Shown here: in pieces, positions 27,067 to 63,999 of the stretch
Layout of the letters: each line of letters starts with the position of its first letter
How positions within the stretch are numbered: the stretch's first letter is position 1
Assembly (NCBI GenBank): GCA_051294375.1
Contig: CM119266.1
Location: 23,982,411-24,046,410 of the forward strand
Direction of reading: 5' to 3'
From: Paraspadella gotoi
Taxonomy: Eukaryota > Animalia > Chaetognatha
Length of the DNA: 64,000 nucleotides
The notes under the pieces: generated by a model
Databases searched by the model: none
Seen by the model: the letters and a program-made list of their open reading frames with translations, nothing else
What the model was told of the DNA's origin: nothing
Made by a program: the position numbers and the translations under genes

Positions 27067-27105
<39 letters not shown>

Positions 27106-27195: not shown

Positions 27196-27959
27196 TAGAA
27201 AATCTCCGAAAAATTCCGGATTTTTGTTTTATCGTCGACTTTCTTGAATATTAGGTTTAAGCTTGTTGATAATGATAATAAGACGACTTCTCAACATCAA
27301 TTTTGTGTAATGGATTTTACCCATACCCCTTACTCAAAACTCGATGAACATAAGTTCAATATATTCACATCCAAATTCTAAGAACTACGTACGATGTACT
27401 ATAACCATATACAAAACACAAAAAAAATAGCGTAACATTTACGAGAAAAATGTTGGTCTAAGTCATTTTTTTGTTTACAAATAATAACCGTCGAGTTTTT
27501 GCGGATTCTCGTCTCCTCATACTAATTTATCTTTCAAACGTATAAAACCTGAAAAAGAAGGATGAAACAGTAATGATGAAGGATCCTTAGGCACTTCCTC
27601 GAAAATATAAAAAAAAATGTTCGCTAGTATTTTTTTTTTCTTTTACTTTTCTCTGTAAAAGAAACGAAGCCAAAAGTCGCGAGGAAATGTAATTATTGAA
27701 AGAAAACAGATCGAGAGAATCCGGCTGCATCGTCGTCATCGTCCTCTTTTCGAACTTCGACAAGAATAACAATTTTAAAACCGGCTACCGTTACCGAATA
27801 AACAAACCGGGAGAACGCTCCCAAAACTCTCGATACCCATCCCTTGTTTACATTCGCCAACATCGGAGATTCCCTCTGTTTTCGTCGCCGGTGGAATAAC
27901 CTCCGTCGGGGCCTTAAAAAATGTTAATTTGCAGTTCATAAGAGTTTTGTTGGTTCATT

Positions 27960-36584: not shown

Positions 36585-37928
36585 AGATTGACCTGCAGGC
36601 CGCGTTGCCTTTTCCGCTGCACTTCTCCAAGAGGATGGAGTTTCAAAAAGCGAATCTTCTCAAATGCTGCACCTCGGTACGCAGCAATTGGGGGACGGGA
36701 CAGGAAGAAGAAAGATAAAAAGGAGAGAGGAGGAAAGAGCTTGGAATCATCAATAGGCGAAGAGACGGATTGGCTCGTCGTGAGATGCCGGCGTTACGCG
36801 GCGGCGCGTCGGCGAAGACGGCGTCGAAGTGGGTGCACGGTCGCGAGTCTGTGTTCACGTGCGCGGTTTCGTATTGTTATGAAGACGAACGTCGAAGTTT
36901 TTGTTTACACAAAGACACGATATTTAGTTTAGTAAAATCGATTATTAAAATTTTAAAAATAACTCACGTATTTCAATAATACAATTATTTTTTAATTAAA
37001 AGGCTTCTTTGATTTATATGTTAAGGCTTTTAATGTGAGAAATTTAACAATAAAAGATAAAAATGTAATTTTTAAATTAAAACTCTTCAAACGTAAAACA
37101 TGCAAAAACAAAAATTACAATACAAGACACACAAAGATTAAAAAAATAACTAAAGGGAAACAAATGGAAAAGAATCATGAGAATGAAAGAAAGACGTCGA
37201 ACAAAACAATGACAACGATGACAACATTGACAACGAGGACAACGATGGAGACAAAGAACAACAACAAAATCAAGCAGAGATTGCAATCTTAATCAACGTC
37301 ATCACCGGAGTTTCGCTTCTCTCTTCTTAATTCAAAAGGAAGATAAAGAAAGGTCAACATCGAAGTATCTCGACCACGAACCCCGCCTTGGATATAAATG
37401 CTCTTTGGAATTTCCGTTATTTATCTTTTTTTTTTACGAAGATGAATAATGGCAGCTGTGTCTGGCTGGTCATGGCTACAGAAGAGATTGTGCAGTTTTG
37501 TATAGCAATTATTTTTTCAACTAATTTTTTGGAATACTGATGAGTCTCGAGCTTCTTTGTGTGTGGGCTCTCCACCGAAAATGTGAGTGTGAGGTGATTC
37601 TTTTTTTTTTTTCAAATTTACATGGACATCTTTGGTTTTATACAAAAAGGGCAAAGTTAATTTGGGGTAATCTACCAATTCCATGATTTACACAACCATT
37701 TACATCCGGATTCAATTCAATAATCACATTTTTTTTGATGCTGCATCTGGCATAAATAGAACTAATATCCGTGAACTTTTTCTGACCCTGAATTTTGAAA
37801 GACTTTAAATTCTTTTTGATTTTTTTTTTTTAAATTATGCGGAATTTGAAATTGAAAATGCCTTTACCCTTTGTTATGCTAAAGAGAAAAATATAAAACT
37901 CATCCAATATATGTCAGATCGCATACAG

Positions 37929-40900
37929 TTAACTGAAACAAATGGCGCCGACCTCAAAGCCAAACATTTGATAACCAGCTCCGTAATCTTTGGGGACGAA
38001 AATTGACGATGGGAAGTTGATTAAGTTTCTTTGTTTTGACTTCGAAAACTGTGTAACTTTGTGACGGGCGATTCCTACATCCGTCATAGATGATCTGCTG
38101 CGATGTAAATATACTTGGTATCAAACTCATAGTCGTTGTGCCCTGGAGGACTAAGGCCAATTCAATGAGTAGTCATCTACATTGTAACCACGCTGCCGAG
38201 TTAGTACAAAATAGGTGAAGTTCTGCCTAGCTTCTTCACTGAGGCAAGCGGAGGAAGGTAAGTTGAACTGATTCATCATACTCAATTTCAAAACTCCTTC
38301 AACTTGGAGAATGGCTTATTTGTTGTACTTTCTTTTCTCCACCAACGCTGGGGCATCGTTCGGAACTGCTGCTTTGGATTGACACAAGTTTCTCCAGATC
38401 TACTCATGTTGCAGTAGACATAGATCGCGTCATTGATTACTCCAAGGTTTGGGTCAATCCAGTACCAACCATCTGGCAAGTCAGGATGTCCTTGATGAAG
38501 ATCTCTGCATGATCTAGCTGGTTCATCCTTAGTTTCCGACAGGATTAGAAATAGCATTCAGTTGTTTCTGCATGTTGTCCAAATAATTCAACTATCCGGG
38601 AAACAACATTTACATAATGTTCTCTTCATGAAGATCATCTTCAGCAATTTCTTTATTCTCATTCCAAATCTCTTTTTTTTCTTGCCGCTGTTTTTGGTGG
38701 ACTGATAAAATCAGGGGGAATGAGCTGAGCCTCACCAGGGGGTCCAGGAGGTTCCAGGGGGACCTGGTGGTCCAGAATCACCTTTGATACCCGCGGAACC
38801 TGTTGTGTTCCTTTAAGACTACAGATCCCCTCTGGGCCTGGTGGTCCAGCAGGTCCATCAGCTCCAGATAATTCCATCTGGCCCAGCATTCCAGGATCTC
38901 CTTTGGGACGCAACTTTTCTGGCGGACCTTTTGGTCCTGTATCACCTTTAGGACCAGCTTCTCCAGGGGGACCCATCAAACCAATAGCTCCTGGATGTCC
39001 TTTTAGTACCTTTGAAAACCGGGGTCACCTTGAGTCCTCCTGGACCTGGTGTCCAGTAATACCAGATTGCCCTGGAGAACCTGGTGGGCCTGGTGGCCCA
39101 ACATCTCCCTGTGGTCCAATAGATCCTCTCAAACCAGGAATTCCAGTTGGTCCAGCTGGTCCTAACCCTCCAGGTCCTCCTGGGGGACCTTGAGAACCCA
39201 ATGGTCCAGCATACACCTTTTTTGGTCCAATTGGACCTGAAGGTCCTTGCACTCCAGGTGGTCCTGTAGGTCCTTGTTTTGCCAGGCAAACCTTGTAGTC
39301 CAACTTCACCAGGTGGACATCTTCTCCAGGTGGTCCTAAAGGACCAGGATCTCCATTAATACCAGGAAGCCATCCAATCCCTTTGGAAACCAGGTGGCCC
39401 AGGCCTTCCTGCATTTCCTGAAAACCAGTTTGGTCCCGGATCTCCTTTTGGTCCTCAACGCCTGGCAAACCTCTGGGACCAGGTGGTCCTTGAGGTCCCA
39501 AAGTCCCATCTTCACTCTTTTGCTCCTGGAAGACCAACGAGGACCAGTTCACCATCTTTTCCAGGATTACCCACTAAAACCTGGCAAACCAGGATCTCCC
39601 TTAGAGCCTCGGGAACCTTCAGTTCCAGTGGAGCCTGGTGTTCCAGCTTCTCCTTGTGCTCCAGGTGTGCCTGGAGATCCTTGAGGTCCAGGGGGTCCTG
39701 GAGGTTCCTCGTTGTCCAGGATCTCCTGTATCACCTTTTCCACCCTGAGGTCTCAGGTAATCCCTGTAAACCGGGCAATCCAGGAAACTCCAGGCGGGCC
39801 TCGAGGTCCTTCATCTCCTTTGTCCACAGGAATTCCTTGAGGGCCCTTTTAATTCCTGGTTCACCAGGTGGCCCAATCTGTCCCATTGGACCTTCCGGGC
39901 CTTGCTTGCCAGGTGAACCTGGCGGTCCTTGTAACCAAAGTCACCTTTGAAACCTTTTTCACCTGCTGGACCAGGATCACCTTTATCACCATCTTCGCCG
40001 GGCCGACCAACTGGTCCCTGGTGGTCCTGGTAAACCTCTTCCTCCTGGGAGGCATCTCTTCCAGGGATCCTGGGATACCAGATTCTCCAGGATCACCTTT
40101 CCCTCCTTGTAGACCGATTTCTCCTTGAGGACCCGGTCTACCAACTGGTCCTTGCCCTCCTGAAGGACCAGCTACACCCTGCTCACCTTGTCACCTGATG
40201 GGCCTGATGGTCCACTAGGACCTCTTTCTCCTTTTCCACCATCTTACCTGGAGGACTGGTAAACCACGCTCTCCTGAAAAACCTTGGAATCCTGGAGTCC
40301 CTCAGCACCAGATGTTCCAGGGGGCCCGGCTAAAACCTCTTTCACCTGGCTTTCCTGCTTCACCAGGAAGTCCTGATTCTCCAGGCAAACCTGGATTTTC
40401 CTGGTACACCTCTATCACCTGCAGACCCTGTTTCACCAAGCGGGGCCAGGTGGTCCTACACTCAACTGGCCCAGGTTGCCAGGCTGTCCCGGACTTCCAG
40501 GTTCTCCTCTTTCTTCCAGGTAATCCAACCAATCCATCCTTGCCAGGTATTCCAGATGGACCAGGTGCTCCAGGATATCCGCTAGGGCCTCGATTCCTTT
40601 CTAAAACCTGGCGCTCCAGATGCACCAGGAGTACCTGGAGGACCTGTTTCACCTTTTGGTCCAATTGGGCCTGGAATACCTCTTTGTCCACGTTCTCCTC
40701 TTGGGCCTCTTGGTCCAGATTCTCCTCTATCACCATCTGCTCCAACAGATCCCGGTGGACCTGAAGGTCCATCGCGACCTCTTTTTCGCAACCAAAACCC
40801 TGTCACCTTTAGCTCCTCTTCTTCCAGGGTATCCAGGAAACCCAGGGATGCCCATTTTTTCCTTTTTCACCAAATGGTCCAGGGGGTCCAGTTTCACCTC

Positions 40901-42003
40901 TTGGTCGCTTCAAAATCCTTTTGGACCTTCTGGTCCAGGTTCACCAGGAAGACCTCTTGGACCAGGCTTACCTTTTTTCACCAAGCTGACCAGGAGCTCC
41001 TTTAAAACCATCTAATCCTGCTGATCCTTTATCTCCTTTTTCTCCTGACAGACCTCGGCTTCCCTCTGTCTCCTTTCACTCCTCTGACACCAGGATACCC
41101 CAAAATACCTTGAGGTCCAGGAGGCCCGGATTCTCCCTTTTCTCCTGGTGCCCACCAGCACCTGTCAATCCAGGTAATCCATCAGCTCCTGGAAGGCCAG
41201 GCAAACCTGGTTTTCCAACTGGACCTGGCATTCCTGCGGACCAATTGACCCTTGAGAACCTGGAGGTCCAATTGGGCCAGATGGTCCAGGAGTCCCAGGA
41301 TTTCCAGGTCCTCCCAATTGGACCCATGGAACCCTTTGGACCTTCTGCGCACCTTCTAAACCGGGAATTCCAGGTTGAACCAGCTGGTCCAGACTGACCT
41401 CTTGGCCCGAGAAAACCTCTCGGTCCCATATCACCTTGTGGACCCGGAGAGCCTTGTGGACCATCTTCTCCAGGTTCCCCCCGGTGATCCATCAGCTCCA
41501 GTTTTTCCTGGAAACCCTGGTAATCCCCTGTGTCCTTTGGGACCAGGTAGACCTGGCATCCCAGGATAGCCTTGTTCTCCTTTGGCTCCAGTTGGTCCAC
41601 TTCTTCCTCGTTCACCATCACCACCAGTTCTCCCTCTTTTAACCATTTCTTCCTGGAGGACCCATTGGCCCTCTTGGTCCCCTTGGTCCACCTTCACCAC
41701 TATTCTCTCAGGTTCACCTTTTGGGCCTTCAAAACCTGGACCACAGGTACACCCTGACAAGCCAGCGATACCCTGTGGACCAGTGGCTCCTCTCATAGCC
41801 AGCATGTGTTGACTTAACATTTTGTCTAAATGTTTCTGCATTATCAGGTCCTTTCCATCTGGGCCTTGTAAAGGGATGATAAACATGACCTGGAGGACCT
41901 GGTAGTCCATCAGCACAGCAATGCATCGCGACCTGGTAAACCTCTCCTCTCCCTTAGGTCCAATCGGACCAGGGAGGGCCAGGCATCCCGGTGGTCCAGG
42001 AGG
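37929..42003 (-). pseudogene. Frameshifted partial duplicate of the collagen ORF (C-propeptide to minor helix); probably an uncorrected second-haplotype gap-fill copy rather than a real pseudogene
   Basis: 36655-42003 duplicates 42029-47318, including the 3' flank. Many 1-bp indels; the substitutions I checked are synonymous; ends at a 25-N gap (42004-42028). Confidence 0.75.
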
Positions 42004-43262
42004 NNNNNNNNNNNNNNNNNNNNNNNNNTCTTCTCAAATGCTGCACCTCGGTATCGCAGCAATTGGGGGACGGGACAGGAAGAAGAAAGATAAAAAGAGA
42101 GAGAGGAAAGAGCTTGGAATCATCAATAGACGAAGAGACGGATTGGCTCGTCGTGAGATGCCGGCGTTACGCGGCGGCGGCGTCGGCGAAGACGGCGTTT
42201 GCAGTCCGATTGTTTGATTGTTGAAGACGTAAACGTCTGAAGTTTTTTTGTTTACACAAAGACACGATATTTAGTTTAGTAAAATCGATTATTAAAATTT
42301 TAAAAATAACTCACGTATTTTCAATAATACAATATTTTTTAATTAAAAGGCTTCTTTGATTTATATGTTAAGGCTTTATGTGATAAATTTAACAATAAAA
42401 GATAAAAATGTAATTTTAAATTAAAACTCTTCAAACGTTAAAACATGCAAAACAAAAATTACAATACAAAACAACAAAGATTAAAAAAATACTAAAGGGA
42501 AACAAATGGGAAAAGAATCATGAGAATGAAAGAAAGACGTCGAACAAAACAATGACAACGATGACAACATTGACAACGAGGACAACGATGGAGACAAGAA
42601 CAACAACAAATCAAGCAGGATTGCAATCTTAATCAACGTCATCACCGAGTTTCGCTTCTCTCTCTTAATTCAAAAGGAAGATAAAGAAAGGTCAACATCG
42701 AAGTATCTCGACCACGAACCCCGCCTTGGATATAAATGCTCTTTGGTAATTTCCGTTATTTATCTTTTTTTTTTTTACGAAGATGAATAATGGCAGCTGT
42801 GTCTGGCTGGTCATGGCTACAGAAGAGATGTGGCAGTTTTGTATAGCAATTATTTTTTCAACTTTTTTTGGAATACTGATGAGTCTCGAGCTCTTTTGTG
42901 TGGGCTCTCAACCGAAAATGTGAGTGTGAGGTATTCTTTTTTTTTTTCCAAATTTACATGGACATCTTTTGGTTTATACAAAAAGGGCGAAGTTAATTTG
43001 GGGGTAATCTACCAATTCCATGATTTACAACAACCATTTACATCCGGATTCAATTCAATAATCACATTTTTTTTGATGCTGCATCTGGCATAAATAGAAC
43101 TAATATCCGTGAACTTTTTCTGACCCTGAAATTTTGAAGACTTTAAATTCTTTTTGATTTTTTTTTTAATTATGCGGAATTTGAAATTGAAAATGCCTTT
43201 ACCCTTTGTTATGCTAAAGAGAAAAATATAAAACTCATCCAATTATGTCAGATCGCATACAG

Positions 43263-46200
43263 TTAACTGAAACAAATGGCGCCGACCTCAAAGCCAAACA
43301 TTTGATAACCAGCTCCGTAATCTTTGGGGACGAAATTGACGATGGGAAGTTGATTAAGTTTCTTTGTTTTGACTTCGAAAACTGTGTAACTTTGTGACCG
43401 GCGATTCCTACATCCGTCATAGATGATCTGCTGCGATGTAAAATACTTGGTATCAAACTCATAGTCGTTGTGCCCCTGGAGGACTAAGGCCCAATTCAAT
43501 GAGTAGTCATCTACATTGTACCACGCTGCCGAGTTAGTACAAAAATAGGTGAAGTTCTGCCTTGCTTCTTCACTGAGCAAGCGGAGGAAGGTAAGTTGAA
43601 CTGATTCATCATACTCAATTTCAAAACCTCCTTTCAACTTGGAGAATGGCTTATTTGTTGTACTTTCTTTTCTCCACCAACGCTGGGGCATCGTTCGGAA
43701 CTGCTGCTTTGGATTGACACAAGTTTCACCAGATCTACTCATGTTGCAGTAGACATAGATCGCGTCATTGATTACTCCAAGGTTTGGATCAATCCAGTAC
43801 CAACCATCTGGTAAGTCAGGATGTCCTTGATGAAGATCTCTGCATGATCTAGCTGGTTCATCCTTAGTTCCGACAGGATTAGAAATAGCATTCAGTTGTT
43901 TCTGCATGTTGTCCAAATAATCAACTATCCGGGAAACAACATTTACATAATGTTCTCCTTCATGAAGATCATCTTCAGCAATTCTGTTATTCTCATCCAA
44001 ATCTCTTTTTTTTCTTGCTGCTGTTTTTGGTGGACTGATAAAATCAGGGGGAATGAGCTGAGCCTCACCAGGGGGTCCAGGAGGTCCAGGGGGACCTGGT
44101 GGTCCAGAATCACCTTTGATACCCGCGGAACCTGTTGTTCCTTTAAGACCTACAGATCCCTCTGGGCCTGGTGGTCCAGCAGGTCCATCAGCTCCAGATA
44201 TTCCATCTGGCCCAGCAATTCCAGGATCTCCTTTGGGACCAACTTTTCCTGGCGGACCTTTTGGTCCTGTATCACCTTTAGGACCAGCTTCTCCAGGGGG
44301 ACCCATCAAACCAATAGCTCCTGGATGTCCTTTAGTACCTTTGAAACCGGGGTCACCCTTGAGTCCTCCTGGACCTGGTGGTCCAGTAATACCAGATTGC
44401 CCTGGAGAACCTGGTGGGCCTGGTGGCCCAACATCTCCCTGTGGTCCAATAGATCCTCTCAAACCAGGAATTCCAGTTGGTCCAGCTGGTCCTAACCCTC
44501 CAGGTCCTCCTGGGGGACCTTGAGAACCCAATGGTCCAGCATCACCTTTTGGTCCAATTGGACCTGAAGGTCCTTGCACTCCAGGTGGTCCTGTAGGTCC
44601 TTGTTTGCCAGGCAAACCTTGTAGTCCAACTTCACCAGGTGGACCATCCTTCCCAGGTGGTCCTAAAGGACCAGGATCTCCATTAATACCAGGAAGGCCA
44701 TCCAATCCCTTTGGACCAGGTGGCCCAGGCCTTCCTGCATTTCCTGGAAAACCAGTTGGTCCCGGATCTCCTTTTGGTCCTTCAACGCCTGGTAAACCTC
44801 TGGGACCAGGTGGTCCTTGAGGTCCCAAAGTCCCATCTTCACCTTTTGCTCCTGGAAGACCACGAGGACCAGGTTCACCATCTTTTCCAGGATTACCCAC
44901 TAAACCTGGCAAACCAGGATCTCCCTTAGAGCCTCGGGAACCTTCAGTTCCAGGTGGACCTGGTGTTCCAGCTTCTCCTTGTGCTCCAGGTGTGCCTGGA
45001 GATCCTTGAGGTCCAGGGGGTCCTGGAGGTCCTCGTTGTCCAGGATCTCCTGTATCACCTTTTCCACCCTGAGGTCCAGGTAACCCCTGTAAACCGGGCA
45101 ATCCAGGAACTCCAGGAGGGCCTCGAGGTCCTTCATCTCCTTTTGTCCCAGGAATTCCTTGAGGGCCCTTTAATCCTGGTTCACCAGGTGGCCCAATCTG
45201 TCCCATTGGACCTTCCGGGCCTTGCTTGCCAGGTGAACCTGGCGGTCCTTGTAACCCAAAGTCACCTTTGAAACCTTTTTCACCTGCTGGACCAGGATCA
45301 CCTTTATCACCATCTTCGCCGGGCCGACCAACTGGTCCTGGTGGTCCTGGTAAACCTCTTCCTCCTGGGAGGCCATCTCTTCCAGGGGATCCTGGGATAC
45401 CAGATTCTCCAGGATCACCTTTCCCTCCTTGTAGACCGATTTCTCCTTGAGGACCCGGTCTACCAACTGGTCCTTGCCCTCCTGAAGGACCAGCTACACC
45501 CTGCTCACCCTTGTCACCTGATGGGCCTGATGGTCCACTAGGACCTCTTTCTCCTTTTCCACCATCTTTACCTGGAGGACCTGGTAAACCACGCTCTCCT
45601 GAAAAACCTTGGAATCCTGGAGGTCCCTCAGCACCAGATGTTCCAGGGGGCCCGGCTAAACCTCTTTCACCTGGCTTTCCTGCTTCACCAGGAAGTCCTG
45701 ATTCTCCAGGCAAACCTGGATTTCCTGGTACACCTCTATCACCTGCAGACCCTGTTTCACCAGCGGGGCCAGGTGGTCCTACAACTCCAACTGGCCCAGG
45801 TTGGCCAGGCTGTCCCGGACTTCCAGGTTCTCCTCTTTCTCCAGGTAATCCAACCAATCCATCCTTGCCAGGTATTCCAGATGGACCAGGTGCTCCAGGA
45901 TATCCGCTAGGGCCTCGATTTCCTTCTAAACCTGGCGCTCCAGATGCACCAGGAGTACCTGGAGGACCTGTTTCACCTTTTGGTCCAATTGGGCCTGGAA
46001 TACCTCTTTGTCCACGTTCTCCTCTTGGGCCTCTTGGTCCAGATTCTCCTCTATCACCATCTGCTCCAACAGATCCCGGTGGACCTGAAGGTCCATCGCG
46101 ACCTCTTTTTCCAACCAAACCCCTGTCACCTTTAGCTCCTCTTCTTCCAGGGTATCCAGGAAACCCAGGGATGCCCATTTTTCCTTTTTCACCAAATGGC

Positions 46201-48593
46201 CCAGGGGGTCCAGTTTCACCTCTTGGTCCTTCAAATCCTTTTGGACCTTCTGGTCCAGGTTCACCAGGAAGACCTCTTGGACCAGGCTTACCTTTTTCAC
46301 CAAGCTGACCAGGAGCTCCTTTAAAACCATCTAATCCTGCTGATCCTTTATCTCCTTTTTCTCCTGACAGACCTCGGCTTCCTCTGTCTCCTTTCACTCC
46401 TCTGACACCAGGATACCCCAAAATACCTTGAGGTCCAGGAGGCCCGGATTCTCCCTTTTCTCCTGGTGCTCCACCAGCACCTGTCAATCCAGGTAATCCA
46501 TCAGCTCCTGGAAGGCCAGGCAAACCTGGTTTTCCAACTGGACCTGGCATTCCTGGCGGGCCAATTGACCCTTGAGAACCTGGAGGTCCAATTGGGCCAG
46601 ATGGTCCAGGAGTCCCAGGATTTCCAGGTCCTCCCATTGGACCCATGGAACCCTTTGGACCTTCTGCACCTTCTAAACCGGGAATTCCAGGTTGACCAGC
46701 TGGTCCAGACTGACCTCTTGGCCCGAGAAAACCTCTCGGTCCCATATCACCTTGTGGACCCGGAGAGCCTTGTGGACCATCTTCTCCAGGTTCGCCCGGT
46801 GATCCATCAGCCCCAGTTTTTCCTGGAAACCCTGGTAATCCCCTGTGTCCTTTGGGACCAGGTAGACCTGGCATTCCAGGATAGCCTTGTTCTCCTTTGG
46901 CTCCAGTTGGTCCACTTCTTCCTCGTTCACCATCACCACCAGTTCTCCCTCTTTTACCATTTCTTCCTGGAGGACCCATTGGCCCTCTTGGTCCCCTTGG
47001 TCCACCTTCACCACTATCTCCAGGTTCACCTTTTGGGCCTTCAAAACCTGGACCACCAGGTACACCTGACAAGCCAGCGATACCCTGTGGACCAGTGGCT
47101 CCTCTCATAGCCAGCATGTGTTGACTTAACATTTGTCTAAATGTTTCTGCATTATCAGGTCCTTTACCATCTGGGCCTTGTAAAGGGATGATAAAAACAT
47201 GACCTGGAGGACCTGGTAGTCCATCAGCACCAGCAATGCCATCGCGACCTGGTAAACCTCTCTCTCCCTTAGGTCCAATCGGACCAGGAGGGCCAGGCCA
47301 TCCCGGTGGTCCAGGAGGACCAGGAATATAGTAGGCATTACCTCCTGGTGAAGGCCCTGCCGAAAAGTCATCTTCTCCAGATCCTTCAAATTCTGGCCCA
47401 AATTGATTGGATTCACCTTCATTATAGTCATAATCTCTTTCAGAAATCCCAGTTCCCAAACCAATAAAACCGCCAGAAGCACCATGAGCTCCTTCTCCCC
47501 CACTTACTCCAGCAACTTCTCCATCATCTCCAGTAAACCAGGATCCATAACTTCCTGCTTCCTCATTAAGCCTGGCATTGGCATCATTTCTGCTTAGGCT
47601 AAATCTGTTTGTCTTGCGACTATTGTCATATTGATCTAACTGTGCAGAAACTCCTTTCCCAAATCCAGATTTGCATTTTTTTTCGGCAGCATCAAAAGGT
47701 ACTTGACAGTCTGGAGTCAAACAGGTACAATGAGCATAAGCTGCTTCGGGATCATCTACCAATATCAAATCTTGAATATCCCCACGGTAAACTTGATCCT
47801 CCATCAATTGTCTTCCCACAATGATGATTCCAGTGAGATCGATCTTTGATGGTTTGCTTCGCTTGAGAGGCATTGTCTTATTTTCTTTGCAGTCAACCAG
47901 CAGTGTAACTGAATCTCCTTTCACTGAAAATGATACACGATGCCATTTACCATCTGATAAGTTGATGTTGTCAAATCGTGGCGAATCTTCTCGACCAGGT
48001 CGACCTCCGGTATCTTCAAACCAGAATAACGGACTTGGACCCACCTGCACAGCTAACTCTTCATTGCCATTCTGGCCATTGTAGATGGTAAAAAGAAAGG
48101 CTGAATTTTGATCGTCAGGTCGGATGGTAGCAAGCACAGAGAAATCTTCAGGAAACCCGCCCGGAAACACTTGCGATGTTGTAACGCTGAGTTGAGCATC
48201 TGCGTTTATTCTGTAAGCGACGTCGGGTTTTCCGACTGGGTATCCATTGCTGTCCGTAACGTAGGGAGGTCTGTTGGTGCAGATGCCCACCGTTTCGGAG
48301 ACTCCGTAGGGAAAGGATTGGATGTTCACAGCGCTAAGTAAATCAATGGCCCCTTGCGGCAGCGTGACGCTGGAACTGGAGGCGCCACGCGACAGCAACG
48401 AAGTCGAGAAAAATGCGGCACAAAAAAAGAGCGAGGTGAAAGCGGAAAGAGAGGAATTAGAATGAGAGAAAAAGCTCCGACTCGACGACCGGTTGGAGGT
48501 GTGTCGTCTATGGAGGTGGAAGACGCGCGGCGAAGTCGGAGGCGGCGCCCCGCCCTCTTCGGGCGTTCGCTCGCCGCTCCGACCGCCACTCAT
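43263..48593 (-). CDS. Clade-B fibrillar procollagen (collagen alpha type V/XI-like), 1776 aa, single-exon CDS
   Basis: One open frame encodes a hydrophobic signal-like stretch, a TSPN/LamG domain ([49 protein letters not shown]), an acidic variable region, a minor helix, the linker PPGHVFIIP...MLAMRG, a major Gly-X-Y helix at 47102-44061 (3042 nt = 338 triplets), a furin site RKKR and a COLFI C-propeptide ([42 protein letters not shown]). Confidence 0.97.
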
Positions 48594-49267
48594 GGCGATT
48601 TTGACTGAATGTCTTCAGGCCTTTCACCCTTTATCTCTCACAAGGAGAGTGGAAGACAAAAGGACAACCCGACCCTGGCGAAAACAAAAAAACAATTTCC
48701 TACGACATGAAGGACGAAATGACGAACCGCTATCCTTCGAGAAAAAAAAAACACGAAATCGATCTCAGACAAGCGTCCACGCGCTCGAGCGTATTTAAAT
48801 AGTCGAAAAATTCGTAAATCCAATATATTTCGCGTTTTTACATCTCGCAAATCGAAGCTTTTTGGGTTTTTTTTTTTTCCTCGAGTTCGTTCAATCGAGA
48901 AAAACGAAAGGAAAAGAGCGAAAGGTTTTTCGATTAAAATTGTTTGATTTTAGTTTTCTTCGCGTTTTTCAAAGTTTTTCGCTTTTTCTTTTTAAATTTT
49001 TTTTAAAAATCCGTAATCCGAGAGCTTTGGACTTTTCTTCCTGATTTTCTGGATTTTCTTTTTTTGTTTTTTTTTACGGGGCCGAGCGCTGGCCCGATTT
49101 ACTGTGGACGGCGGCTCAAAAACTCTCAAAATCTTCATCCAAATCTCTAGGGATGCGTCGTCTTCGTCGAACACTTCCTCGTCGTTTTCGTCGTCGTCGT
49201 CGTCGATCTCATCGTCGACGAATCTCAGCCAGTCGAGAGAGAATTCAGCCGGGGTGAACTCCTAAGA

Positions 49268-49284
49268 AGAGAGGGGGAGAGAGA

Positions 49285-49364
<80 letters not shown>

Positions 49365-49448
49365 ATAAAGAGACAAAAGAATAATCGATTAGGTAAGAAA
49401 AAGTAACTAATATGTAATAAAAAAAAGTAATTAAAAAAAAAAACAGAA

Positions 49449-49482
<34 letters not shown>

Positions 49483-49565
49483 GAAAAATAAAGAGAGAAA
49501 AGAATAATCGATTTATTAAGAAAAATTAACTAATATGTAATAATAAAAGTAATTTATAAAAAAAC

Positions 49566-49627
<62 letters not shown>

Positions 49628-49652
49628 GAGAGAGAGAGACAGAGAGAGAGAG
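49268..49652. repeat. Compound repeat: (GA)n tracts alternating with two copies of an ~90-nt A-rich unit
   Basis: The unit AAAAATAAAGAGA(C/G)AAAAGAATAATCGATT...AACTAATATGTAATAA...AAACAGAAA occurs at ~49360 and ~49484, each flanked by GA runs. Confidence 0.85.
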
Positions 49653-50322
49653 AGCCCTAGCGATCGGCGGCGGGGCGATTAGAGTTGAACTCGATTTTGC
49701 AACATTAAGATAAAGAAATATATGAGAGTGGCTTGTATGTAATTTTTTGTTTTGAAGGAAAACAGTAGTAGTGCTTATTTACTCGACGAAATCCGTATTC
49801 AGACTATTTTCGAAGAGAGAAAATTAATAAATACATAACCATAGTAATATTTAATAATGATGACAACGTTAGGCTAAAAATTACTTTCGCGTTCCAATCC
49901 AGATGTTATAATCCTGTAGTGGCAAATAACCCTGACGCCATCACACAGCGAAGGCGGAGCGCTGTGACTCTAACGTGGCGCAGTTTTTAAACTTCGCCGG
50001 CTTTTTTTTTTCCTCTTTCGGAGCGGCTGCTTTTACAGTGAAAATTTTTGGCCCTTCGTAAAAATTCGAAACACCGCAAAAACAAACATCCGAAAAGAAA
50101 AAAAAGTTTAAAAAAGTGAAAAATTATCGAAGGAGGGAAAAAAAGTGGATGGCATTCGTTCCCTTTTTTTCTTTTTTAACTTCGATCCTTTTTTCTTTCT
50201 CTTTCCTTTTTTTTTCAGTTTATTCGCTAACTTCGTTCAAGATGCACTCGAGTATAAAAACTGTGGCTTTCAAAAAGTCAAAACCCAGTTATCCACAGGA
50301 AGTAGGGACGATGGAGTTGGAT

Positions 50323-50329
50323 AGAGAGG

Positions 50330-50416
<87 letters not shown>

Positions 50417-50737
50417 AGAGAGAGACAGAGAGAGAGAGAGAACCCGAAAATCCTAAAATCTGACGGGGGTTATTCAAAGTATTCCGCTCGTATTTTATGG
50501 GTGTTACCTCAACCCAAATTACGTTTGGCCAGTTACAGATCGAGTTGCCGTTCGCGACTTTTATTCACATCGCCTCAAAATGGCTGACGTTCGAAATCTT
50601 AAGTTTTTTAACGTCGTCAACCAAAGTTGTGACAGAAGAAGTGATAGAAATTAGCAGAGAGGGATATTGTGATATTGCGCAGAGTATTTGTATCCTGAAA
50701 ATGGTTAGTTGGATATGAAAGAAAGAGGGAAACACAG

Positions 50738-50810
<73 letters not shown>

Positions 50811-50903
50811 GGAATAGGGAAACGAGACGAGAGAGCATTCCCGAGACAGTGGCGATAGAATCGGGAAGTCGGAATTCCTTTACTCTAAAAACAAATACTT
50901 AGC

Positions 50904-50986
<83 letters not shown>

Positions 50987-50995
50987 CTCTCTCTC
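50323..50995. repeat. Cluster of (GA)n/(CT)n microsatellites (50323-50441, 50736-50807, 50906-50995)
   Basis: Direct reading of the sequence. Confidence 0.93.
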
Positions 50996-51580
50996 AATCC
51001 TTCTTTAATTTAAGCCCTTGAGCGTTCTGATTTCCGTGAGCAAAAATCCTTCATCTCCAAGTTTTGCTTTAATCATTTTCTGCTCTTTTGTTTACAAAAG
51101 TAAATAAACAAACTCGTCGAAAGAATCGTTCCGCTTCGCCCCGTGGAAATACGAGTCTACGAGACGCGCGCTTTTCACTCAACATTGTTTTTTCTTTGAG
51201 GCAATGTTTTAAAAATCCGCGTCTGAAAACAAACAAAAGAAAACAAAACATTTCTACCTCATCTTTTTTTAAGCTTAGAAAGAAATTATGCGGCAGGCAA
51301 TGAACTTTGAATTCTCTTTGTATCGTTTGTTGGAAGCCAAAAGACAAATCATAATCATACAACAAATTATTTTTTTCACTTTTGTTTTCACCTATTACCT
51401 TATTTCTTTCACTTTTACTATCTCTCTCTCGCTCGTTCCTTCTCTATCTCTCTCTTTTTCTGTAACATCTGGCATTCATCCTCAGGAAACTGAGTTTCAA
51501 GAAAGTAAACATTTTCTCCTTCAAATCCCATCATGCCTAAGCCATGAATACAGATGAGAAAGGGAGAGAGAGATAGAAAA

Positions 51581-51637
<57 letters not shown>

Positions 51638-51845
51638 TTAAAACGTTAAAACAGGAATATAACTCCGCCAAATATCAATCTGAATTGCCAAAAGAGTCTC
51701 GTTTAAACTAACCCCGCCCTGTTAAGTTACAGGTAAACGTTTCTTTTTCTCTCTGACATTATTTCTGTTGAGCCCAGAAAATCGTCGGCTTCTAAATGTC
51801 CTCGGGTAGAGATGGTTTTGATGACGGAAAGGAATTTTGGTGAAA

Positions 51846-51897
<52 letters not shown>

Positions 51898-52222
51898 CTA
51901 TCTCTCAACAACAATAACGTTATCATTTCATCTGCAGAAAGTCTGTCACTTATCGTATCTACAGGGAAATGTAATTGATGCGCGAGCTAACTAGCATTTA
52001 ACTTTGGGCTAAAAATAAGCTTTTTAAAACAGTGGCAGCCGACTGTTTCATGACGAAGTTGTTCTTATATTTACTTTTTCCCTCAAATAAGCCGATTAAA
52101 TTTCTCTCTCTTTAATTCTTCTTTTTATCATCCGCAAAACTTTTTTTTTTTAATTCTAATTTTAATTTTATTTAAATTTCGGTTTTCTAAAAATATATAT
52201 TCTCCAAAAATTCCTTCTCAAG

Positions 52223-54633
52223 TTTAGGTTTGAAATCCGGGCTCGAAACCGCGATGACCCATCGGCGTAAATAGTATAAATCCGAAAATTTGTCCTGGCT
52301 CGAGGCGATATTCTTTTAAACGTAACAGAACAAAATTTGAGTGAAAGTTGACTCTTCTTATCAGCAGAAACAACAACAACTACAATAACAACGACGACGA
52401 CAACGAAAACAACTGGCAAATGCGATACAAGGGTGAATGAATCGGAGAGTGGGTCGCGTCGAGAGGCGAAACCTGGTCTGGGAAAAGAATCACCCTCTGG
52501 GTTTTGAAGGGGGAGTCCTGGAGTAGACGGGGGTGGCGGTGGGGGCGGCTGGAGCGGCTGGAGTGGCTGGAGCGGCGAGGAGGCGTGTGGCGACTGGAGT
52601 GGGGGTTTATACTTGAAAAGGAATATAAATCTAGAAGGAAAAAAGTGGGATAATAAATTATAAGTATAAATTAAAATGAAACTTTCGTTGTAAATTAGCC
52701 ATTTGACCAATTTGTATGTTTGTTTAACAGAGAGTTGGTCGAGTGAATTGTAATAGTTGGCTCGTTAAAGGGGGATGATCTGTATGGATTTCCCCGGGTC
52801 TACAGAGAACGAACGTAATGGTTTTTAGTTACGACAAAGTTTTACCAATAACAAGAGCGACTCGGGTCACTGGGGAAAATCCCAAAACGCGGGGAAATTC
52901 AAAAATTCGCCGGAAACGCGAGGTGAAAACGCGAGTGGGGGGAGGGAAGATAGTGGGAGGACGTAAACCGGGGAGGGGGGTGGGGGAGACAAAGGGGGGA
53001 TCTATCGGGGAGGTCGCTTTGCCGGCGATAGAAAGAGACGCTTCGTTATGAATTGTCTGTCAAAATGAACATTGTTTTTTTTTCTCAATTCTTAACGAAT
53101 AGGTCGCACTCAAATTCTTCATTAACGGAAGAAGACATTATTGTTAGAAATTATAATGGAGAGGCTCGGATGGTTAGCGAGAACGAGAACGGTTTTATTA
53201 AGGAGGGTAATTCGATACAATAGATATAAAGATAGCATCTTCCTCGTCGTCGTCGTCGTCGTCCCCAAGTGGATTGCCGACGGGATCCCTAGAAAAGATG
53301 GAAAATAACGATAAGACCAATAACTCGGTTAAATGTGAACTCTGAAAATTTTGTTTCATTGTGAGTTACTTTTTTTTTTTTTACTATAGTTACATTAAAC
53401 TCTAAATTAGAGGGGCGACATTCTTGTTGAAACATTGATTGTTTCACCATGAATCGGTCAATGAAATCGATTAGAAAGGAGAAAACGAGATAGGAAAAAA
53501 AAAGTTTTGTTATAAAATTTGGTTGGAAATGACGTGTTTCCCAGTCCGGAGGAGAAAACTAAATAGCTGGCCATCAAATTTTAAACGCTAAGTTGGATTC
53601 GGAAGTGTTCTGCGTTTCCTATCACTATCGAAGTCAACACTACGTGGAAAATTACAATATTATTTGCAAAAATTAAATTAGTATAATACTTAGGAATTAT
53701 CTTTATTCATGAGGAAGTCCAACTGTGAAATATTTTGAGATCATGTACGTGGACAACCCTCTCCAACTCTTCAAGTTCAAACCTGACTGATTAAGCATCG
53801 AGAATGTCAAATCAAGCGTCAGGTGACGCGACCCCCGAGTTAGACACCGACGCGAAGGATGGTAGAATAGTGACCCGGGAATCGCGACCCCTGGAATGAG
53901 AAAGTGACCGCACTTCTCCGAGGCTGCGGGCGGGATGAGGGGGCGGATCCTGGAGTCATAATAGAGGAGTGATTGGCAGAGGTGGCTGCTTCTAATAAAT
54001 AGAGATTTAAAAGGAAGATTGACCGAGAGAATAACGTGTACAAATAAATCCGAGAATTTCCTTGACTCTGTTATGTTTTATTTCACCAGTGATTTCGAAA
54101 GTAAAGTATTTCCTAGGTTTACAATTACTTTTGGCAAATAATTTTTTTCCCTCAGAGACGTGCATAGTTTCGTTTTATGTTTTCCTTCCTCTCCTTTTTC
54201 AATTCAAAACTGGCATGCATTTTTTTCATTAATTTTCAAAATAAGAAAAAAATAAAAAGAAAGTATTTGAAAAATTAATACAAAATAATTAAAATTCAAA
54301 TTAAGTTCGAAATGTTTTGTTTTTTTTTAGATTGAGTATGCGAACTTTAAAACCGATTCTCCTTTCTTAAAAATAAGCATCCCCGCACTACGAAATTGAG
54401 AAATAAAACAAAATCGTAAAATATTGCTTTTTTTAAAATTTTTTTTAGCGATATATATCGGTCTGAGGGGCGGGCATTATGCGGAGAAAAACCCAAGTTC
54501 CCCGCAGAGAAAATCAAATTCGACATTAGAATATTTAAATTCGGGACGCCCAAACATTAATGGGTTTTTTAAACCTTTTCACCGCCTTTCTATCGAGTGG
54601 AGATGAAGACTCAAAAAATGCCTGGGCACAAAG

Positions 54634-54701
<68 letters not shown>

Positions 54702-55057
54702 TTTTATTCCTGCTTACTTTCACTTCAGGGTAACAAACAGGGTAACTCATAAACCACAAAAAGTAAATGCTCATTGCTGAATTTCGGTATCTGAAAATTC
54801 TTCCTCAATAAATTATTTCTAACCACTAATACGTGTTTGAAAATCGGTCAAAGATCCCCTGACAACACACCGGTTTTCCCATTTTTAACTGACACCGTCT
54901 GAGGTGCTCCGTCCCAACTCCCACCTCCCACCTCCCTCGACCCATACCCACCTCATATCTCGGGGACGTGGCCAAGTTTATGACTCTAGCTTCGGGTCAA
55001 ACGTTCGCTCGCCAGGATTCCCCTACTTTTCACACGTACATGTTTTTATCGAGCACA

Positions 55058-55119
<62 letters not shown>
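52223..55119. repeat. ~2.9-kb block duplicated at 61055-64000
   Basis: Collinear from TTTAGGTTTGAAATCCGGG through to the CT run; the copies differ mostly by 1-3 bp indels. Confidence 0.92.
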
Positions 55120-55123
<4 letters not shown>

Positions 55124-56905
55124 CTCTCACTTTCTATTTTTTCTTTCTTTCATCGTTCTCCTTTCGCTTAATTATTCTAATTTTTAAACTAAGAGTACTA
55201 AAATTAGCTGCATTTGATTAATTAGGTAAAAATATGTTAAGACTTAAGAACTACAGATAAATTTTATTTTTTTCTTTCTAGACCCACTTCACCTTGGACT
55301 GATTTTTAAAAGGGAAAACAACCATGTCGTCGCGAGTTGTGACAACGTACAATCGAGAAATATGATTGGACGGTTAGGCTTTTTCTTCCAATCAGCAATC
55401 TCCTTGACTTTCCCACCGCCTACGGGCTGAGGGGGCGCAGGAAGGAAGCGCAGCTAAGAATTTTCTTCTTTTTGAAAAAAAAAAAAAAAACTTTCATCTT
55501 TTCGAAGAAAAAAAGTTTTAGAAAAGTAGGAAGACCGATGAAAATCTTTTTTTGTTCTAATTTTCAAGTTTAATGAAAGAAATGCTCACACGTGTGTCTG
55601 TCTGGGGCGTCGGCTCTTTTTCTAGTCTTTCGAGGCCCGAAGTAAACAGTTCCAAAAATGAGGGCCGAACCAGTGATCACAGATTCTTTCTCCCACATTT
55701 CACTTCTGTTCTCACTGAACTTGAACGAAGTAACTTAACATCCTAGTCACTTTATGGTCACAGTTGTTGCCTCACGTCAAGGGGATATTTTTGAATTATG
55801 TATATATATTTTTTGTTCATTTGCTTTTTCAAGGATGTGGAATCAAAACCAGAAGTTTATTGAGTTTTTGTAAAAGTTTAACATCCTAGATTCCGTCCAA
55901 ATACCAAAACAAACGGATTGAATTTTTCCTTCGGCAGAGGGAATGTGAAATTTTTTTCCCCCTCTGAATGAAAAGTAGCCTCTTTATTCAGCCAAAGGCG
56001 ATTCACTCTTTTTTTTTTAATTCTATTTCTTTGAACATTGTTGATTTAAGGGGCTTAACTATTCTAAAATTAAAAAGAATGCGTTAAAACATTCCCTATC
56101 TGTTTCTGAGTAGAATATTTCCTCTAATCATTAAATCTTTAAACTAATGACGTGAGCAGAGTTCAGAACCAGAAACTAAGATCGATGAGAAGCACCGGCT
56201 GTTTTCGGCGAATTTCAGTACGCCGGGATCTGGAACCGGTTTGAGATCGAGGCACCGGGCTTGCATTCGAGTTTGTTCGTCTGAACGGCGAAATCGGCGC
56301 GTCGAAATAAACAAACAATCATTACGTCAAAGAAACAAATAAACAAACAAAAACATTTCCCAAGAAAAGTATTCGTTTCAGTTTTAAAAATTTCAAAGAT
56401 AGGGGACTGGTAGTATCCGCCGAAATTTTTATTTTTTATCTGCCGAAAAAAACAAGAAAATTTGGCTTTTTCCTCCAAAAAATTTATTGCTCAAAATATA
56501 TTAAAAGATAAGACTTGTATTTCAATATTTAGGTAAAACTTACAAAGATCAGTTTAACAATAAAGCAAAAAATTAAATATGCTAATTTAGTATTTTTTTA
56601 TTTTTTGTGATTCACATATAGTACAAAATAATATCATTTTACTTCCCATTTATACTTATAATTTTATTCTTTGTAGATTTTGCTCAAGAGGAGAATCATA
56701 GTCAAAAGAACGTTCATAGTTTAGCTCTTTTCACTTTAGTTACCAATCAACGTAAAACTGACGTTTGATTGGGACTGATTCAATGTTAAAGGCCATTCTT
56801 TGAATCAGGAAAAAAATCGTAAGCAGAAATTGATTCACTGTTTCACTGTCTTACAAATCGTCGCTTAAAGAGACAAACTGCATCATTTTCAAGTGACGAC
56901 CTGCA

Positions 56906-59900
56906 ATGGAACTACAAGATGAAGAAAAGGACGGGGCTAAAGTTGACCTGAATCGAATCGTTAAAGCGAAGCAAAGAATCTCCTCATTCGTCCACTTTAC
57001 TCCCGTCTTCACCAATCAAACGCTGGACAAGATTGTCGCAGAAGACGGTAGGTTTGGAAGACCGTGTGCCGCTTTGGGAAAGTTGAGACACATTCCTTGC
57101 TTTGGACTTTCCTAAATCCTAACTATGAGGGCCGTAAAATTTTACTACGCACACAAACCTACAAGCATCGCCGAGACTAGCTTTTAAAAATAATTTTCTT
57201 TTTTTTCCCCAAAAACAATCTTAAACTTGTTTCAGGTCCTCCAGAAATCGAGATTTTTTGCAAAAGCGAATTTCTCCAGAAAACTGGTTCCTTTAAAGTA
57301 CGAGGTTCGCTCAATTCCGTCTTGGCTCTGAAAGGTATTAATTAATCTATTTATATATCTATATAATATCTATCTATATAATCTAGTTTATCAATTATCG
57401 ACAATTTTTTTTTTATTCAATTTTTTTTAATACTCAAAAATATCTGAAGAGGCCTTCAGTGACTGTCTCAGCCTCACAGACTTCGGGGATCAGACTAATC
57501 CTTTAAAAACATTTAGTGGTAAAAGAGTAAAGCCTCTTCGTAATTAAACTTAATTTTTAACTCTCAATTCCTCCAACGCCCTTTTCTCTCCCCCCCCCTT
57601 CTCCGTCCAGAGCGCGAATCCTCCTTCGACGCCGACAACCGCTCCCGCGGCGTCGTCACCGAAAGCAGCGGCAACAACGGCGCCGCGTTGGCGTGGGCGG
57701 CGTCCGTCGCCGGGTATCCCAGCGTCGTTGTCATGACTCCCGGCAGTTCCGATTACAAGAAAACGTTGATAGGTGAGAATGGAGGTTTTCGAGGTATTTG
57801 ATTTTGTTTATTGTTGTTTATTATTGTTTATTGTTGTTTATATCGTTCTTATTGTGTTATTGTTGACCTTTGTGTCGCCAATTGATCATTTTCGTAGGCA
57901 AAGTCGGCATTCGGCAATTTACAGTCCAAATAAACAGTATCAACAACTGAAAAACAACAACAACTCCTCCAACAGGTTCGTACGGCGCCGAGATCGAAAT
58001 GACGCCGGAAGCGACGACGACGGCTCGAAAGGACGCCGTCAAACGCGTCGTCGAAACGAGAAACTTCGCCGCCATCTACGACGACGACGAACTCATTGCT
58101 GGACAAGGGACGATGGGGCTGGAGCTGTTGGAACAGGTTGGAGCGAGGATAGGGGTTGAGATGGGGCTGGACCGGGTGTTAATATAGAAACGGCAGGGAA
58201 AAGGAATCGAACCTTCAAATAAAACTGTCCGAGGCGACGCTTTCTCTCGATCGGATATACGCGTCGCTCTTTATCGTTTCTTAAAACTACTAAAGCTACA
58301 ACAACGATTTTTTTTGGGGGGGGTTTCCTTTTTCAGACCGTTATCCATAGCTATATTTATTTTTATGCTTTCATATGCAAATTTATTTAAACATTCCGTG
58401 GTTTATAACATCATCAACAAGGACAACAGCGCAAACAGTAAACGATAAACGTCCTTCCCTGCGAATGTAAGCGATATATCCCCTTTTTTTCGAGAGCGAA
58501 ATTGTAAATTCTTCAAAGTGTCCCCTTTGACGCGGACGATTCCCGCGCCCTCTTCTCGTAAAAATATCACCTCTTTGACGTCGTTGAGCGGATATAAATC
58601 CCTCGGCCCGACGTCGACGTCCGAAAAAAAAAGTAAACAAACAGAAGGGAATCGAGGAGACTGGGTCAGAGACCTGGCCTGACTTGAGGAGATTCGGGGA
58701 AGGATATAGGACGCTTGAGTTTTTTAGTAGTTTATTATTATTTAAAATTTTTTATAAGAATATTTTGGCCAGAGATAACGTCAAAAAACAAGTAATCTAC
58801 AATTTAATACGGCGACGTTGAAATTTCTAAAAATATAGACGGGCAACGCCAAAAAAAGTTTTGGGTTATTATTTCCTTCGCAACTGAAAGTCAAATCAGA
58901 CCGACCTGTAGTCGGGCATTGCCTAAGTTCATCCCGCCTATAAGCATGACTCCTTCAGTTTTGACCCGGTGGCTCATTGACCACTAGGTACCGAGTTCAA
59001 TCCCAACCTGGTATCTACCGCCTTGGAGGCCTAGAAAACCCTCATGCCTGGTACCAGCCCAGGAGGAGAAAAAGGGAGAAAAAATGAAAGAGTCGATTCT
59101 CCGTGAAATGGAGATCTCCTTTTGTTTCGAGAAAAAAAAAAAGAGAGGCTACGGTAATGACGATTTAAATCTTTCGTTTTAACCTTCGAACTTTAGACTT
59201 TCCAAGGACGCATCTTCGAAATAAACGGACCGCTCTCTCTTTCGAAGGGACGGACTCTTCGAATTAAGTAGAGCGAACACAGTTTTTTTTTTCGTTTTGG
59301 AATGTTTTCTTTTTTGGCCCGTTCGTTAGAGGATCGAACCTAAAAAAAAATAGATGCTGTTACTCGATTTGTGGACTCGGGATTCGATCCAGGGTCGAGC
59401 CGTGCCGGTTATGTATGAATTTCTTTTTTCTATTATCTTTTGTTTTTTTTGTTTTTTTTTTTTGTGAGTCGTTCAAAGAAGAAAGTTTACATCATATTTG
59501 GATTACGGACCAGGCAATGAATGACGACAACCCCAACCCGAGATGCTGCTGCGATGTTCTCTCAAAAAAAAATCTCCGGGGTCTTTAGGCGCTAATGAGG
59601 GGAAAAGTCTCCTCGTTATCTGTTTCCAGGCGGAGATTAAAAGTTGAGACTTGAGACGAGTCTTCGGTGGTGATGAGAGCTTAAAAGCGACGAGAGATTC
59701 TGGACTGAAAACTGTTAAGGTTCACAGTTGTTTCTAGTTTCGCTTGACGGCTCATCTTTCAGTAGGCTTGGAAGACGGTATGAACAAACAAAGGGGGAAA
59801 AGAAGGGACAATGTAATCGTATTTATAAATACGAAGATATTTCTTTAATAAGAAACTTCGCCAATTAAAATATAGGTCCATTTCTTAAAAAAAAAGAATA

Positions 59901-60274
59901 AATAAATAAAAAAAATAAAAAAATAAAGCGAAAACTTAGCAATTATTCATTCAACCTGTGGTAAAATGTGTCCGAAAATTTAAGGGTTTACTCTCGACTA
60001 AAACCATACTTTTTTTGTCTTTAAAACTTTAATTATTCATTCATTTCTTTCCCTTATTTTTCGCTTTCTCCTTTGCTCACTATTCACTCAAACCGTCGCC
60101 CTGTCAGCTCACCTTGCCGCCTTCACGATGGTTTCACCCACGCATCAATCTCTCTTACCCTCGTTCATTACCCTCCCTTCTCCCTCCCTCGCCCCTCGCC
60201 AGAAAAATGCTTTCTCAACCAGTCGGTGATAATGAAAGGACGCATTCTTCGCTCGACCGTTGCGGAGTCACGCC

Positions 60275-60353
<79 letters not shown>

Positions 60354-61036
60354 AGAGAGAAGAAGAGAGAGAGAGAGTGACGAGGAATAGAGATGGAAAG
60401 AGAGGTAGGCAGGAAGGTAGGAAGGGAGAGGGTGAGGGGAGAAGGAATAAAGGTAGAAAGATAGAAGNNNNNNNNNNNNNNNNNNNNNNNNNNNNNNNNN
60501 NNNNNNNNNNNNNNNNNNNNNNNNNNNNNNNNNNNNNNNNNNNNNNNNNNNNNNNNNNNNNNNNNNNNNNNNNNNNNNNNNNNNNNNNNNNNNNNNNNNN
60601 NNNNNNNNNNNNNNNNNNNNNNNNNNNNNNNNNNNNNNNNNNNNNNNNNNNNNNNNNNNNNNNNNNNNNNNNNNNNNNNNNNNNNNNNNNNNNNNNNNNN
60701 NNNNNNNNNNNNNNNNNNNNNNNNNNNNNNNNNNNNNNNNNNNNNNNNNNNNNNNNNNNNNNNNNNNNNNNNNNNNNNNNNNNNNNNNNNNNNNNNNNNN
60801 NNNNNNNNNNNNNACGTATTGTATATTTACGACTGTTAATAATAATAATTGTAAGAAACATCTCAGGTCCCGGACCTGGACGCCGTCCTCGTTCCGGCGT
60901 CGTCCGGCGGGATGTTGGCCGGCGTCGCCATCGCCGTCAAAAGCCTCAAACCGGAAGTGAGAGTCTATGCGGTGGAACCGAAGGGGAAGAACACGGAAGC
61001 GTCAATGAGGAAGGGAAGGAGAATGTGGAAGAACGA
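56906..61036 (+). CDS. SRR: Serine racemase / serine-threonine dehydratase family PLP enzyme, 5' partial; exons 56906-57047, 57236-57334, 57611-57772, 57976-58136, 60867-~61036
   Basis: GT-AG introns with compatible phases give RIVKAKQRISSFVHFTPVFT, IFCKSEFLQKTGSFKVRGSLN (PLP lysine), GVVTESSGNNGAALAWAA, SYGAEI, IAGQGTMGLELLEQ|VPDLDAVLVPASSGGMLAGVAIAVKSLKPEVRVYAVEPKGK. C-terminal exons are not in the window. Family is secure; exact substrate is not. Confidence 0.85.
60468..60813. other. Assembly gap (346 N) inside racemase intron 4
   Basis: Run of N. Confidence 0.99.

Positions 61037-63963: not shown

Positions 63964-63999
<36 letters not shown>

Follow-up and report, generated by a model that had tools for sequence, protein, structure and literature searches.

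The collagen gene and its protein

The window analysed here, a 64,000-nucleotide stretch of DNA (contig CM119266.1, positions 23,982,411 to 24,046,410), carries on its minus strand a gene for a type V/XI-like fibrillar collagen, the coding sequence of which contains no intron. Positions 43263–48593 form a single open reading frame (ORF) of 5331 nucleotides (nt), i.e., 1776 codons, in which the sole stop is the terminal one. A preliminary description of this DNA had claimed a complete fibrillar collagen in one ORF, and the ORF, the LamG/TSPN domain, the minor helix, the major helix, the RKKR site and the COLFI domain have all been found; the major helix of exactly 338 triplets that it placed at 47102–44061 agrees in both count and coordinates. 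The gene and its parts are as follows.

43263–48593, minus strand: clade B fibrillar procollagen, 1776 amino acids, single ORF (translation, Pfam)
48378–48593, minus strand: leader, residues 1–72, with a long polar n-region and hydrophobic from about residue 49 (hydropathy only)
47664–48371, minus strand: TSPN / laminin-G N-propeptide domain (Laminin_G_2 above cutoff)
47196–47321, minus strand: minor triple helix, 14 triplets, residues 425–466 (Gly-X-Y run)
44061–47102, minus strand: major triple helix, 338 uninterrupted Gly-X-Y triplets, residues 498–1511 (Gly-X-Y run)
44004–44015, minus strand: RKKR furin-type site, residues 1527–1530 (motif; putative cleavage)
43269–43925, minus strand: COLFI C-propeptide (Pfam and alignment)

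The Pfam matches are to Collagen, to COLFI at residues 1557–1775 (222.9 bits) and to Laminin_G_2/3 at residues 148–277, and a V/XI-type chain from a fish matches the laminin-G region through its N-terminal domain, at 47% identity. The leader is likely a signal peptide, as predicted from hydropathy alone, and that of the relative L001 (described below) is arranged alike. KGHxG motifs in the major helix place lysines at helix positions 84 and 924, which we take to be those used for cross-linking in types V/XI. The COLFI domain, aligned to PDB 5k31 and 4ae2, possesses six cysteines (Cys1 and Cys4–8), with Cys2 and Cys3 missing. Judged from its sequence, the protein has the helix length, COLFI domain, minor helix and basic cleavage site by which a fibrillar collagen is recognized. 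It would be secreted, trimerise via COLFI and be cleaved at RKKR, and its predicted role is that of a minor fibril-nucleating chain, as in types V/XI.

About 80 nt 5′ of the ATG, positions 48690–48675 (minus strand) hold a pyrimidine tract plus CAG. This acceptor-like site could serve an intron of the untranslated region (UTR) or a spliced leader; among the contig joints listed for this region, none lies at it.

Assignment to clade B

The assignment as type V/XI-like, already made in the preliminary description, is borne out by the TSPN module, by the register with COL11A1 and by a COLFI tree. The major helix aligns in register with vertebrate COL11A1-type segments at 37–43% X/Y identity, compared with a background of 14–16%, and at offset 0 with arthropod-clade chains (37–38%); the identity is only 22–33% for runs from some other V/XI gene models, and 14.5% for the clade A alpha1(II)-like chain of the starfish Acanthaster. 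The COLFI tree comprises 54 rows, hand-picked from 143 non-redundant domains out of 355, with a midpoint root. The window chain and its relatives form a clade (support 100/100), which is sister to sequences including those of Mytilus and Pinctada (93/90; joint clade 100/98), and the joint mollusc-containing clade is nested in a protostome clade with arthropod sequences (95/96). The clade A rows stand separate (100/98), and support for uniting all the clade B rows is weak (71/81). COLFI alone is described as weakly informative for placement (PMC2852846). On these comparisons, the chain is classed as a protostome clade B (type V/XI-like) collagen of the spiralian type, and, as a guess, an arrow worm or another spiralian lineage that split off early would suit its tree position.

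A search for full-length homologues gave one match, and nearly all of the best 120 of 357 matches in a search of longer proteins are vertebrate. A family-level atlas search returned the COLFI family only, and a viral scan returned three weak partial matches.

Genomic linkage of the intronless gene

The preliminary description had named cDNA contamination as one of the things that could undo its claim, and genomic linkage of the ORF to both flanks as the way to look for it. The N-free stretch 42029–60467 contains the collagen ORF together with exons 1–4 of an intron-bearing PALP-family gene. Nine of the 11 listed sequencing runs, from one organism and three studies, contain 0.85–0.95 of the sampled words, and contigs from four of the nine (X1, X4, X5 and X8) were compared; the run kinds are guesses, and the assembly itself may have been built from X1 or X4. 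The contigs are colinear with the ORF in all four, and no listed contig covers the whole compared stretch. Two X4 contigs, 42404–45317 (2923 nt) and 45319–49205 (3891 nt), run from the ORF into both flanks at even depth, the X1 contig 44918–48139 spans the X4 break, and X1 and X4 contigs jointly bridge all ORF positions and reach both flanks. Three joints are listed, none of them intron-like, of which the one inside the ORF occurs in X1 only and ends at GATC. Within the ORF, four of the five X1 contig breaks are at GATC and the fifth at a variant, and GATC is duplicated at 43966, a pattern not shown by X4, X5 or X8. We take this signature to be that of a proximity-ligation DNA library, and therefore at least one run carrying the ORF would be DNA. 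The N-free linkage and the contigs of X1 and X4 thus join the ORF to both flanks and largely exclude cDNA contamination. In addition, the unbranched multi-kilobase (kb) contigs argue against a near-identical intron-bearing copy in the genome, with the limit that a diverged parent would be invisible at the 95% contig threshold. None of the listed runs carrying the sequence is classed as RNA, which says nothing for or against expression. Two contig features were not used: the X5 depth rising toward the 3′ end, as contig depth cannot rank gene parts, and the ending of X5 and X8 contigs at 49066, where loose ends at 49054–49076 suggest a contig-breaking repeat.

A partial second copy, absent from the preliminary description, lies next to the gene.

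36655–42003, minus strand: artefactual duplicate of 42029–47318, 96% identical and indel-ridden, beside a 25-N gap

The gap, at 42004–42028, lies between 42029–47318 and the duplicate. A global alignment of the duplicate with the ORF copy has 136 indels, 131 of which are of 1–2 nt; the largest (10 nt) is outside the ORF, and each of those inside it is at most 3 nt. An indel-rich copy beside an N gap is typical of long-read gap overfill, and the duplicate is such an uncorrected artefact, not a pseudogene. A real tandem pseudogene was ruled out, since the indels are nearly all of 1–2 nt and the copy adjoins the gap; it is also countered by two other such duplicates in the window and by the 3891-nt X4 contig, which crosses 47318 unbroken. 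The raw-read-like duplicate is informative because it covers codon 426 to the stop without an intron-sized insertion.

Further indel-rich duplicates, 91–96% identical, occur near N gaps (15427–16625 / 16654–17851 / 26252–27203 and 52223–55119 / 61056–63999). They are the same gap-fill artefact, and copy counts in this assembly need care.

The intron comparison is with the two other modelled genes of the window, about 39 kb and 8 kb from the collagen gene. One is a metallophosphoesterase-like gene at 1970–4402 (plus strand), with six exons, GT..AG introns and a weak Pfam match on one exon; it is presumably ADPRM-like. The other is the PALP-family gene at 56906–61034 (plus strand), with five exons seen and GT..AG introns, which we take to be serine racemase or threonine dehydratase-like. 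Together they have nine introns over roughly 2 kb of coding DNA (about 4.5 per kb), and at this density about 24 introns would be expected in 5.3 kb, with P(zero) of about 1e-10 by our own arithmetic. That the neighbours have ordinary introns, as the preliminary description held, therefore stands, while the spacing of about 100–250 coding nt that it gave proves slightly too narrow for exons of about 93–336 nt. The metallophosphoesterase-like gene also has a hydrophobic segment at its N-terminus.

Relatives, selection and age

A metagenome scan yielded one COLFI-bearing locus, L001, among the 80 loci kept; the query included the helix, and unrelated collagen-like matches flooded the 80. L001 is one ORF with 14 + 338 triplets and 87% amino-acid identity over 1764 codons. 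Between the window gene and L001, dN is 0.096 and dS about 1.7 (near saturation), giving a dN/dS of 0.057, and all 16 coding variants among those listed for the window gene are synonymous third-position changes. The gene is under strong purifying selection, and the claim that it is kept intact by selection thus withstands the dN/dS check proposed for it.

L001 and the window also have non-coding elements in common, 490–530 nt upstream and at four places downstream, with E from 5e-21 to 3e-4; the best of 30 shuffled controls reached E 0.004.

49079–49125, minus strand: upstream non-coding element, matching L001 48–96 (78% over 50 nt, E 5e-4)
43008–43103, minus strand: downstream non-coding element common to L001 (83% over 96 nt)
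42784–42851, minus strand: second downstream non-coding element common to L001 (sequence comparison)
32304–32352, minus strand: far downstream element matching the end of L001 (90% over 49 nt)

Loose contig ends suggest that the upstream element is partly recurrent at other loci of the genome, and the far downstream element may be the end of a long 3′ UTR. L001 ends about 50 nt beyond the outermost conserved elements, and because its ends fall just outside them, it is probably a transcript. It was accordingly rejected as proof of intronless relatives, its ends being placed as a transcript's would be. What L001 does suggest is a date for the gene and a long 3′ UTR; if the gene behind L001 shares the intronless state, that state would predate the split at a dS of about 1.7. 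Six further close relatives (P0003 and P0123–P0127), 84–95% identical, show no intron read-through and may be transcripts, and one sequence, P0450, a fusion to unrelated sequence, is taken for a chimera.

Exon structure in homologues

In fibrillar collagens, the helix is coded by many exons based on 54/45 base pairs (bp), a structure that is conserved across animals (PMC2852846, PMC3308698, PMC4450265). In place of this canonical series of phase-0 helix exons, the window has one ORF, with which the contigs are colinear in all four runs compared. Among 464 aligned homologues, seven start internally at residue 1597 and seven end at 1729, with unrelated intron-like flanks, and the window gene aligns unbroken at these COLFI positions, where these homologues enter intron-like sequence. 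We infer an ancestor with many introns.

Members of the arthropod clade stop near residue 1648. In P0153, also of this clade, the frame stays open for about 800 nt, from the end of the helix into COLFI. The read-through of P0133, P0137, P0147 and P0153 suggests a large exon from the helix end to COLFI; the next intron stands at differing positions between these members.

Two full-length single-ORF type V/XI-like collagens of the arthropod clade, L084 (1–5544) and L085 (1–6050), occur in the records of bacterial metagenome-assembled genomes (MAGs). They were rejected as genomic intronless genes, as L084 ends in AATAAA plus A6 and relatives show intron read-through, and both are probably contaminating animal transcripts. 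A genomic L085 would make the intronless state a recurrent one in clade B. Two other bacterial MAG ORFs, on gene-dense contigs (L086, 7008–8630; L087, 7239–8618), contain COLFI above the Pfam cutoff, and L086 also contains a run of 14 Gly-X-Y triplets; a collagen-plus-COLFI layout is not expected outside animals.

Origin of the intronless gene

We consider it about an even matter whether this is an old cDNA-derived (retro)gene that is now a working gene. A fully spliced mRNA would have been reverse-transcribed full length, and the cDNA copy, inserted into germ-line DNA in the distant past, would have become the working gene. All coding introns are precisely absent, with the 338-triplet register intact. 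A single full-length retro-event is favoured because not even the 5′-most introns remain, in contrast to the intron-rich neighbours; loss that includes the 5′ end fits a full-length cDNA better than it fits in-place loss, which is 3′-biased. The introns would have gone in one cDNA-templated event, and the event would be old; no near-identical copy with introns branches the read graphs. The cDNA-mediated origin proposed in the preliminary description fits the precise junctions, which are not, however, proof of the mechanism. Its alternative, horizontal acquisition of a processed collagen copy from another animal, finds no support and is very improbable. The GC content at third codon positions (GC3) is 0.26 overall (0.33 in the TSPN part and 0.42 in COLFI), compared with 0.38–0.84 in 11 neighbouring exons, as a foreign gene might show, but it is chiefly the helix (0.17) that lowers the figure, and L001 shows the same; moreover, the chain belongs to its own fully supported clade with several relatives 84–95% identical, and nests in no named donor group. 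No more credit can be given to an artefact, in which cDNA or transcript-guided sequence was scaffolded into the assembly. The region does have visible assembly faults (the duplicate across the 25-N gap), and the guessed run kinds, the lack of a contig over the whole compared stretch and the possible use of X1 or X4 as assembly source leave room for it. Against it stand the N-free linkage to intron-bearing exons, the uninterrupted ORF in X1 with its GATC-junction contigs, the X4 contigs of 2923 and 3891 nt that cross into both flanks at even depth, and the raw-read-like duplicate, which is likewise intronless.

A retro-event has several observations weighing against it. No diagnostic poly(A) remnant is seen among the seven A-runs of at least 12 nt in 30–49.5 kb, and any poly(A) or target-site traces of so old an event have probably been erased. 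The elements conserved with L001, which lie 500 nt upstream and as far as about 5.5 kb downstream, are just as compatible with an undisturbed locus, and their derivation from the parent would call for a very long cDNA. Selection on the helix also removes imprecise deletions, so that precise junctions are no proof of a single event, and partial intron loss occurs in other protostomes. In chaetognaths, duplicated genes are reported to show no retrotransposition burst and no intron reduction in duplicated families, and collagen-related genes in the Hox cluster are multi-exonic (PMC12460157); if the host is a chaetognath, the intronless collagen would be an exception, not part of a wave. Several of these points speak for cumulative intron loss in place, in which the gene stayed where it was and lost its introns over time by recombining repeatedly with partial cDNAs, or in a single full-length conversion, perhaps starting from an ancestor already short of many of them. 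Non-coding elements are conserved on both flanks, homologues of the arthropod clade contain large fused exons and differ between lineages in where their introns lie, and no insertion scars were seen. However, zero introns remain, the 5′ part with TSPN and leader being no exception, and the two neighbours keep about 4.5 introns per kb, with no sign of genome-wide loss in the window. In-place loss has a substantial but lesser chance of being right, and it ranks close behind the retro-event.

Other features of the window

A tRNA-His(GTG) at 16–87 is the only Rfam match in the window. An AT-rich inverted repeat at 28098–29190 / 29555–30620, with arms of about 1.1 kb that are 82% alike, is possibly a decayed DNA transposon. 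Positions 19001–20000 stand out as a single GC-rich kilobase (0.56) amid AT-rich sequence and contain no long ORF.

Implications

The usual example of conserved exon fragmentation is the fibrillar collagens, and the intron pattern of these genes serves to align and classify the chains (PMC2852846). A clade B gene that is under selection and intronless shows that this pattern can be dispensed with and exactly 338 triplets still retained. It opens the questions of what collagen introns do in expression and how a repetitive mRNA of more than 5 kb is copied in the germ line; as speculation, the loss of in-frame skippable exons was possibly favoured. In practice, the full chain could be amplified directly from genomic DNA. 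A bolder and rather doubtful extension of the retrogene reading is that throughout one spiralian lineage, perhaps that of the arrow worms, the only clade B collagen is a single exon, an ancient retrogene that replaced a many-intron parent. This single exon would have 5.3 kb of coding sequence and perhaps about 11 kb transcribed, and its parent would have had dozens of introns. If true, the lineage would be a natural experiment showing the 54-bp exon architecture to be a legacy of history, with selection on the protein alone holding the helix at 1014 residues.

Comparison with known systems

No report of an intronless fibrillar collagen surfaced in full-text searches of a collection poor in subscription papers, where most matches were judged from their list entries (25 of 479 listed in one search), and older papers may mention intron-poor chains in invertebrates; the excerpts of PMC5120351 and PMC4595640 contain nothing on exon structure. 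The known clade B collagens (COL5A1, COL11A1, COL11A2 and Mytilus 'COL5AS') have the same TSPN, minor helix, 338-triplet helix and COLFI, a layout conserved from sponges to humans (PMC2852846). They differ from the window gene in having the 54/45-bp exon architecture (PMC2852846, PMC3308698), whereas the window gene has no coding intron. In addition, the window COLFI is without Cys2 and Cys3, as in some invertebrate chains, and the window leader has a long n-region.

Teleost hatching-enzyme and rhodopsin genes, which have also become intronless, are much shorter and had few introns. The intronless hatching-enzyme genes are ascribed to retrocopying, with function retained and an upstream promoter kept (PMC6385490), and the complete intron loss of teleost rhodopsin is likewise attributed to retrocopying with function retained (PMC6650399); synteny data exist for both. 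Another likeness is found in amphioxus SYCP1, where retrogene replacement left AmphiSYCP1 with a single coding exon of about 3.2 kb (PMC5803294). Both it and the window gene present a large multi-exon animal gene as one coding exon, but for SYCP1 the loss of the parent and the new position have been shown; the coding lengths are about 3.2 kb and 5.3 kb, and the products a meiotic and a matrix protein, respectively. Retrogene replacement is thus a known process and the protein an ordinary clade B chain; it is the structure of the gene that is unusual.

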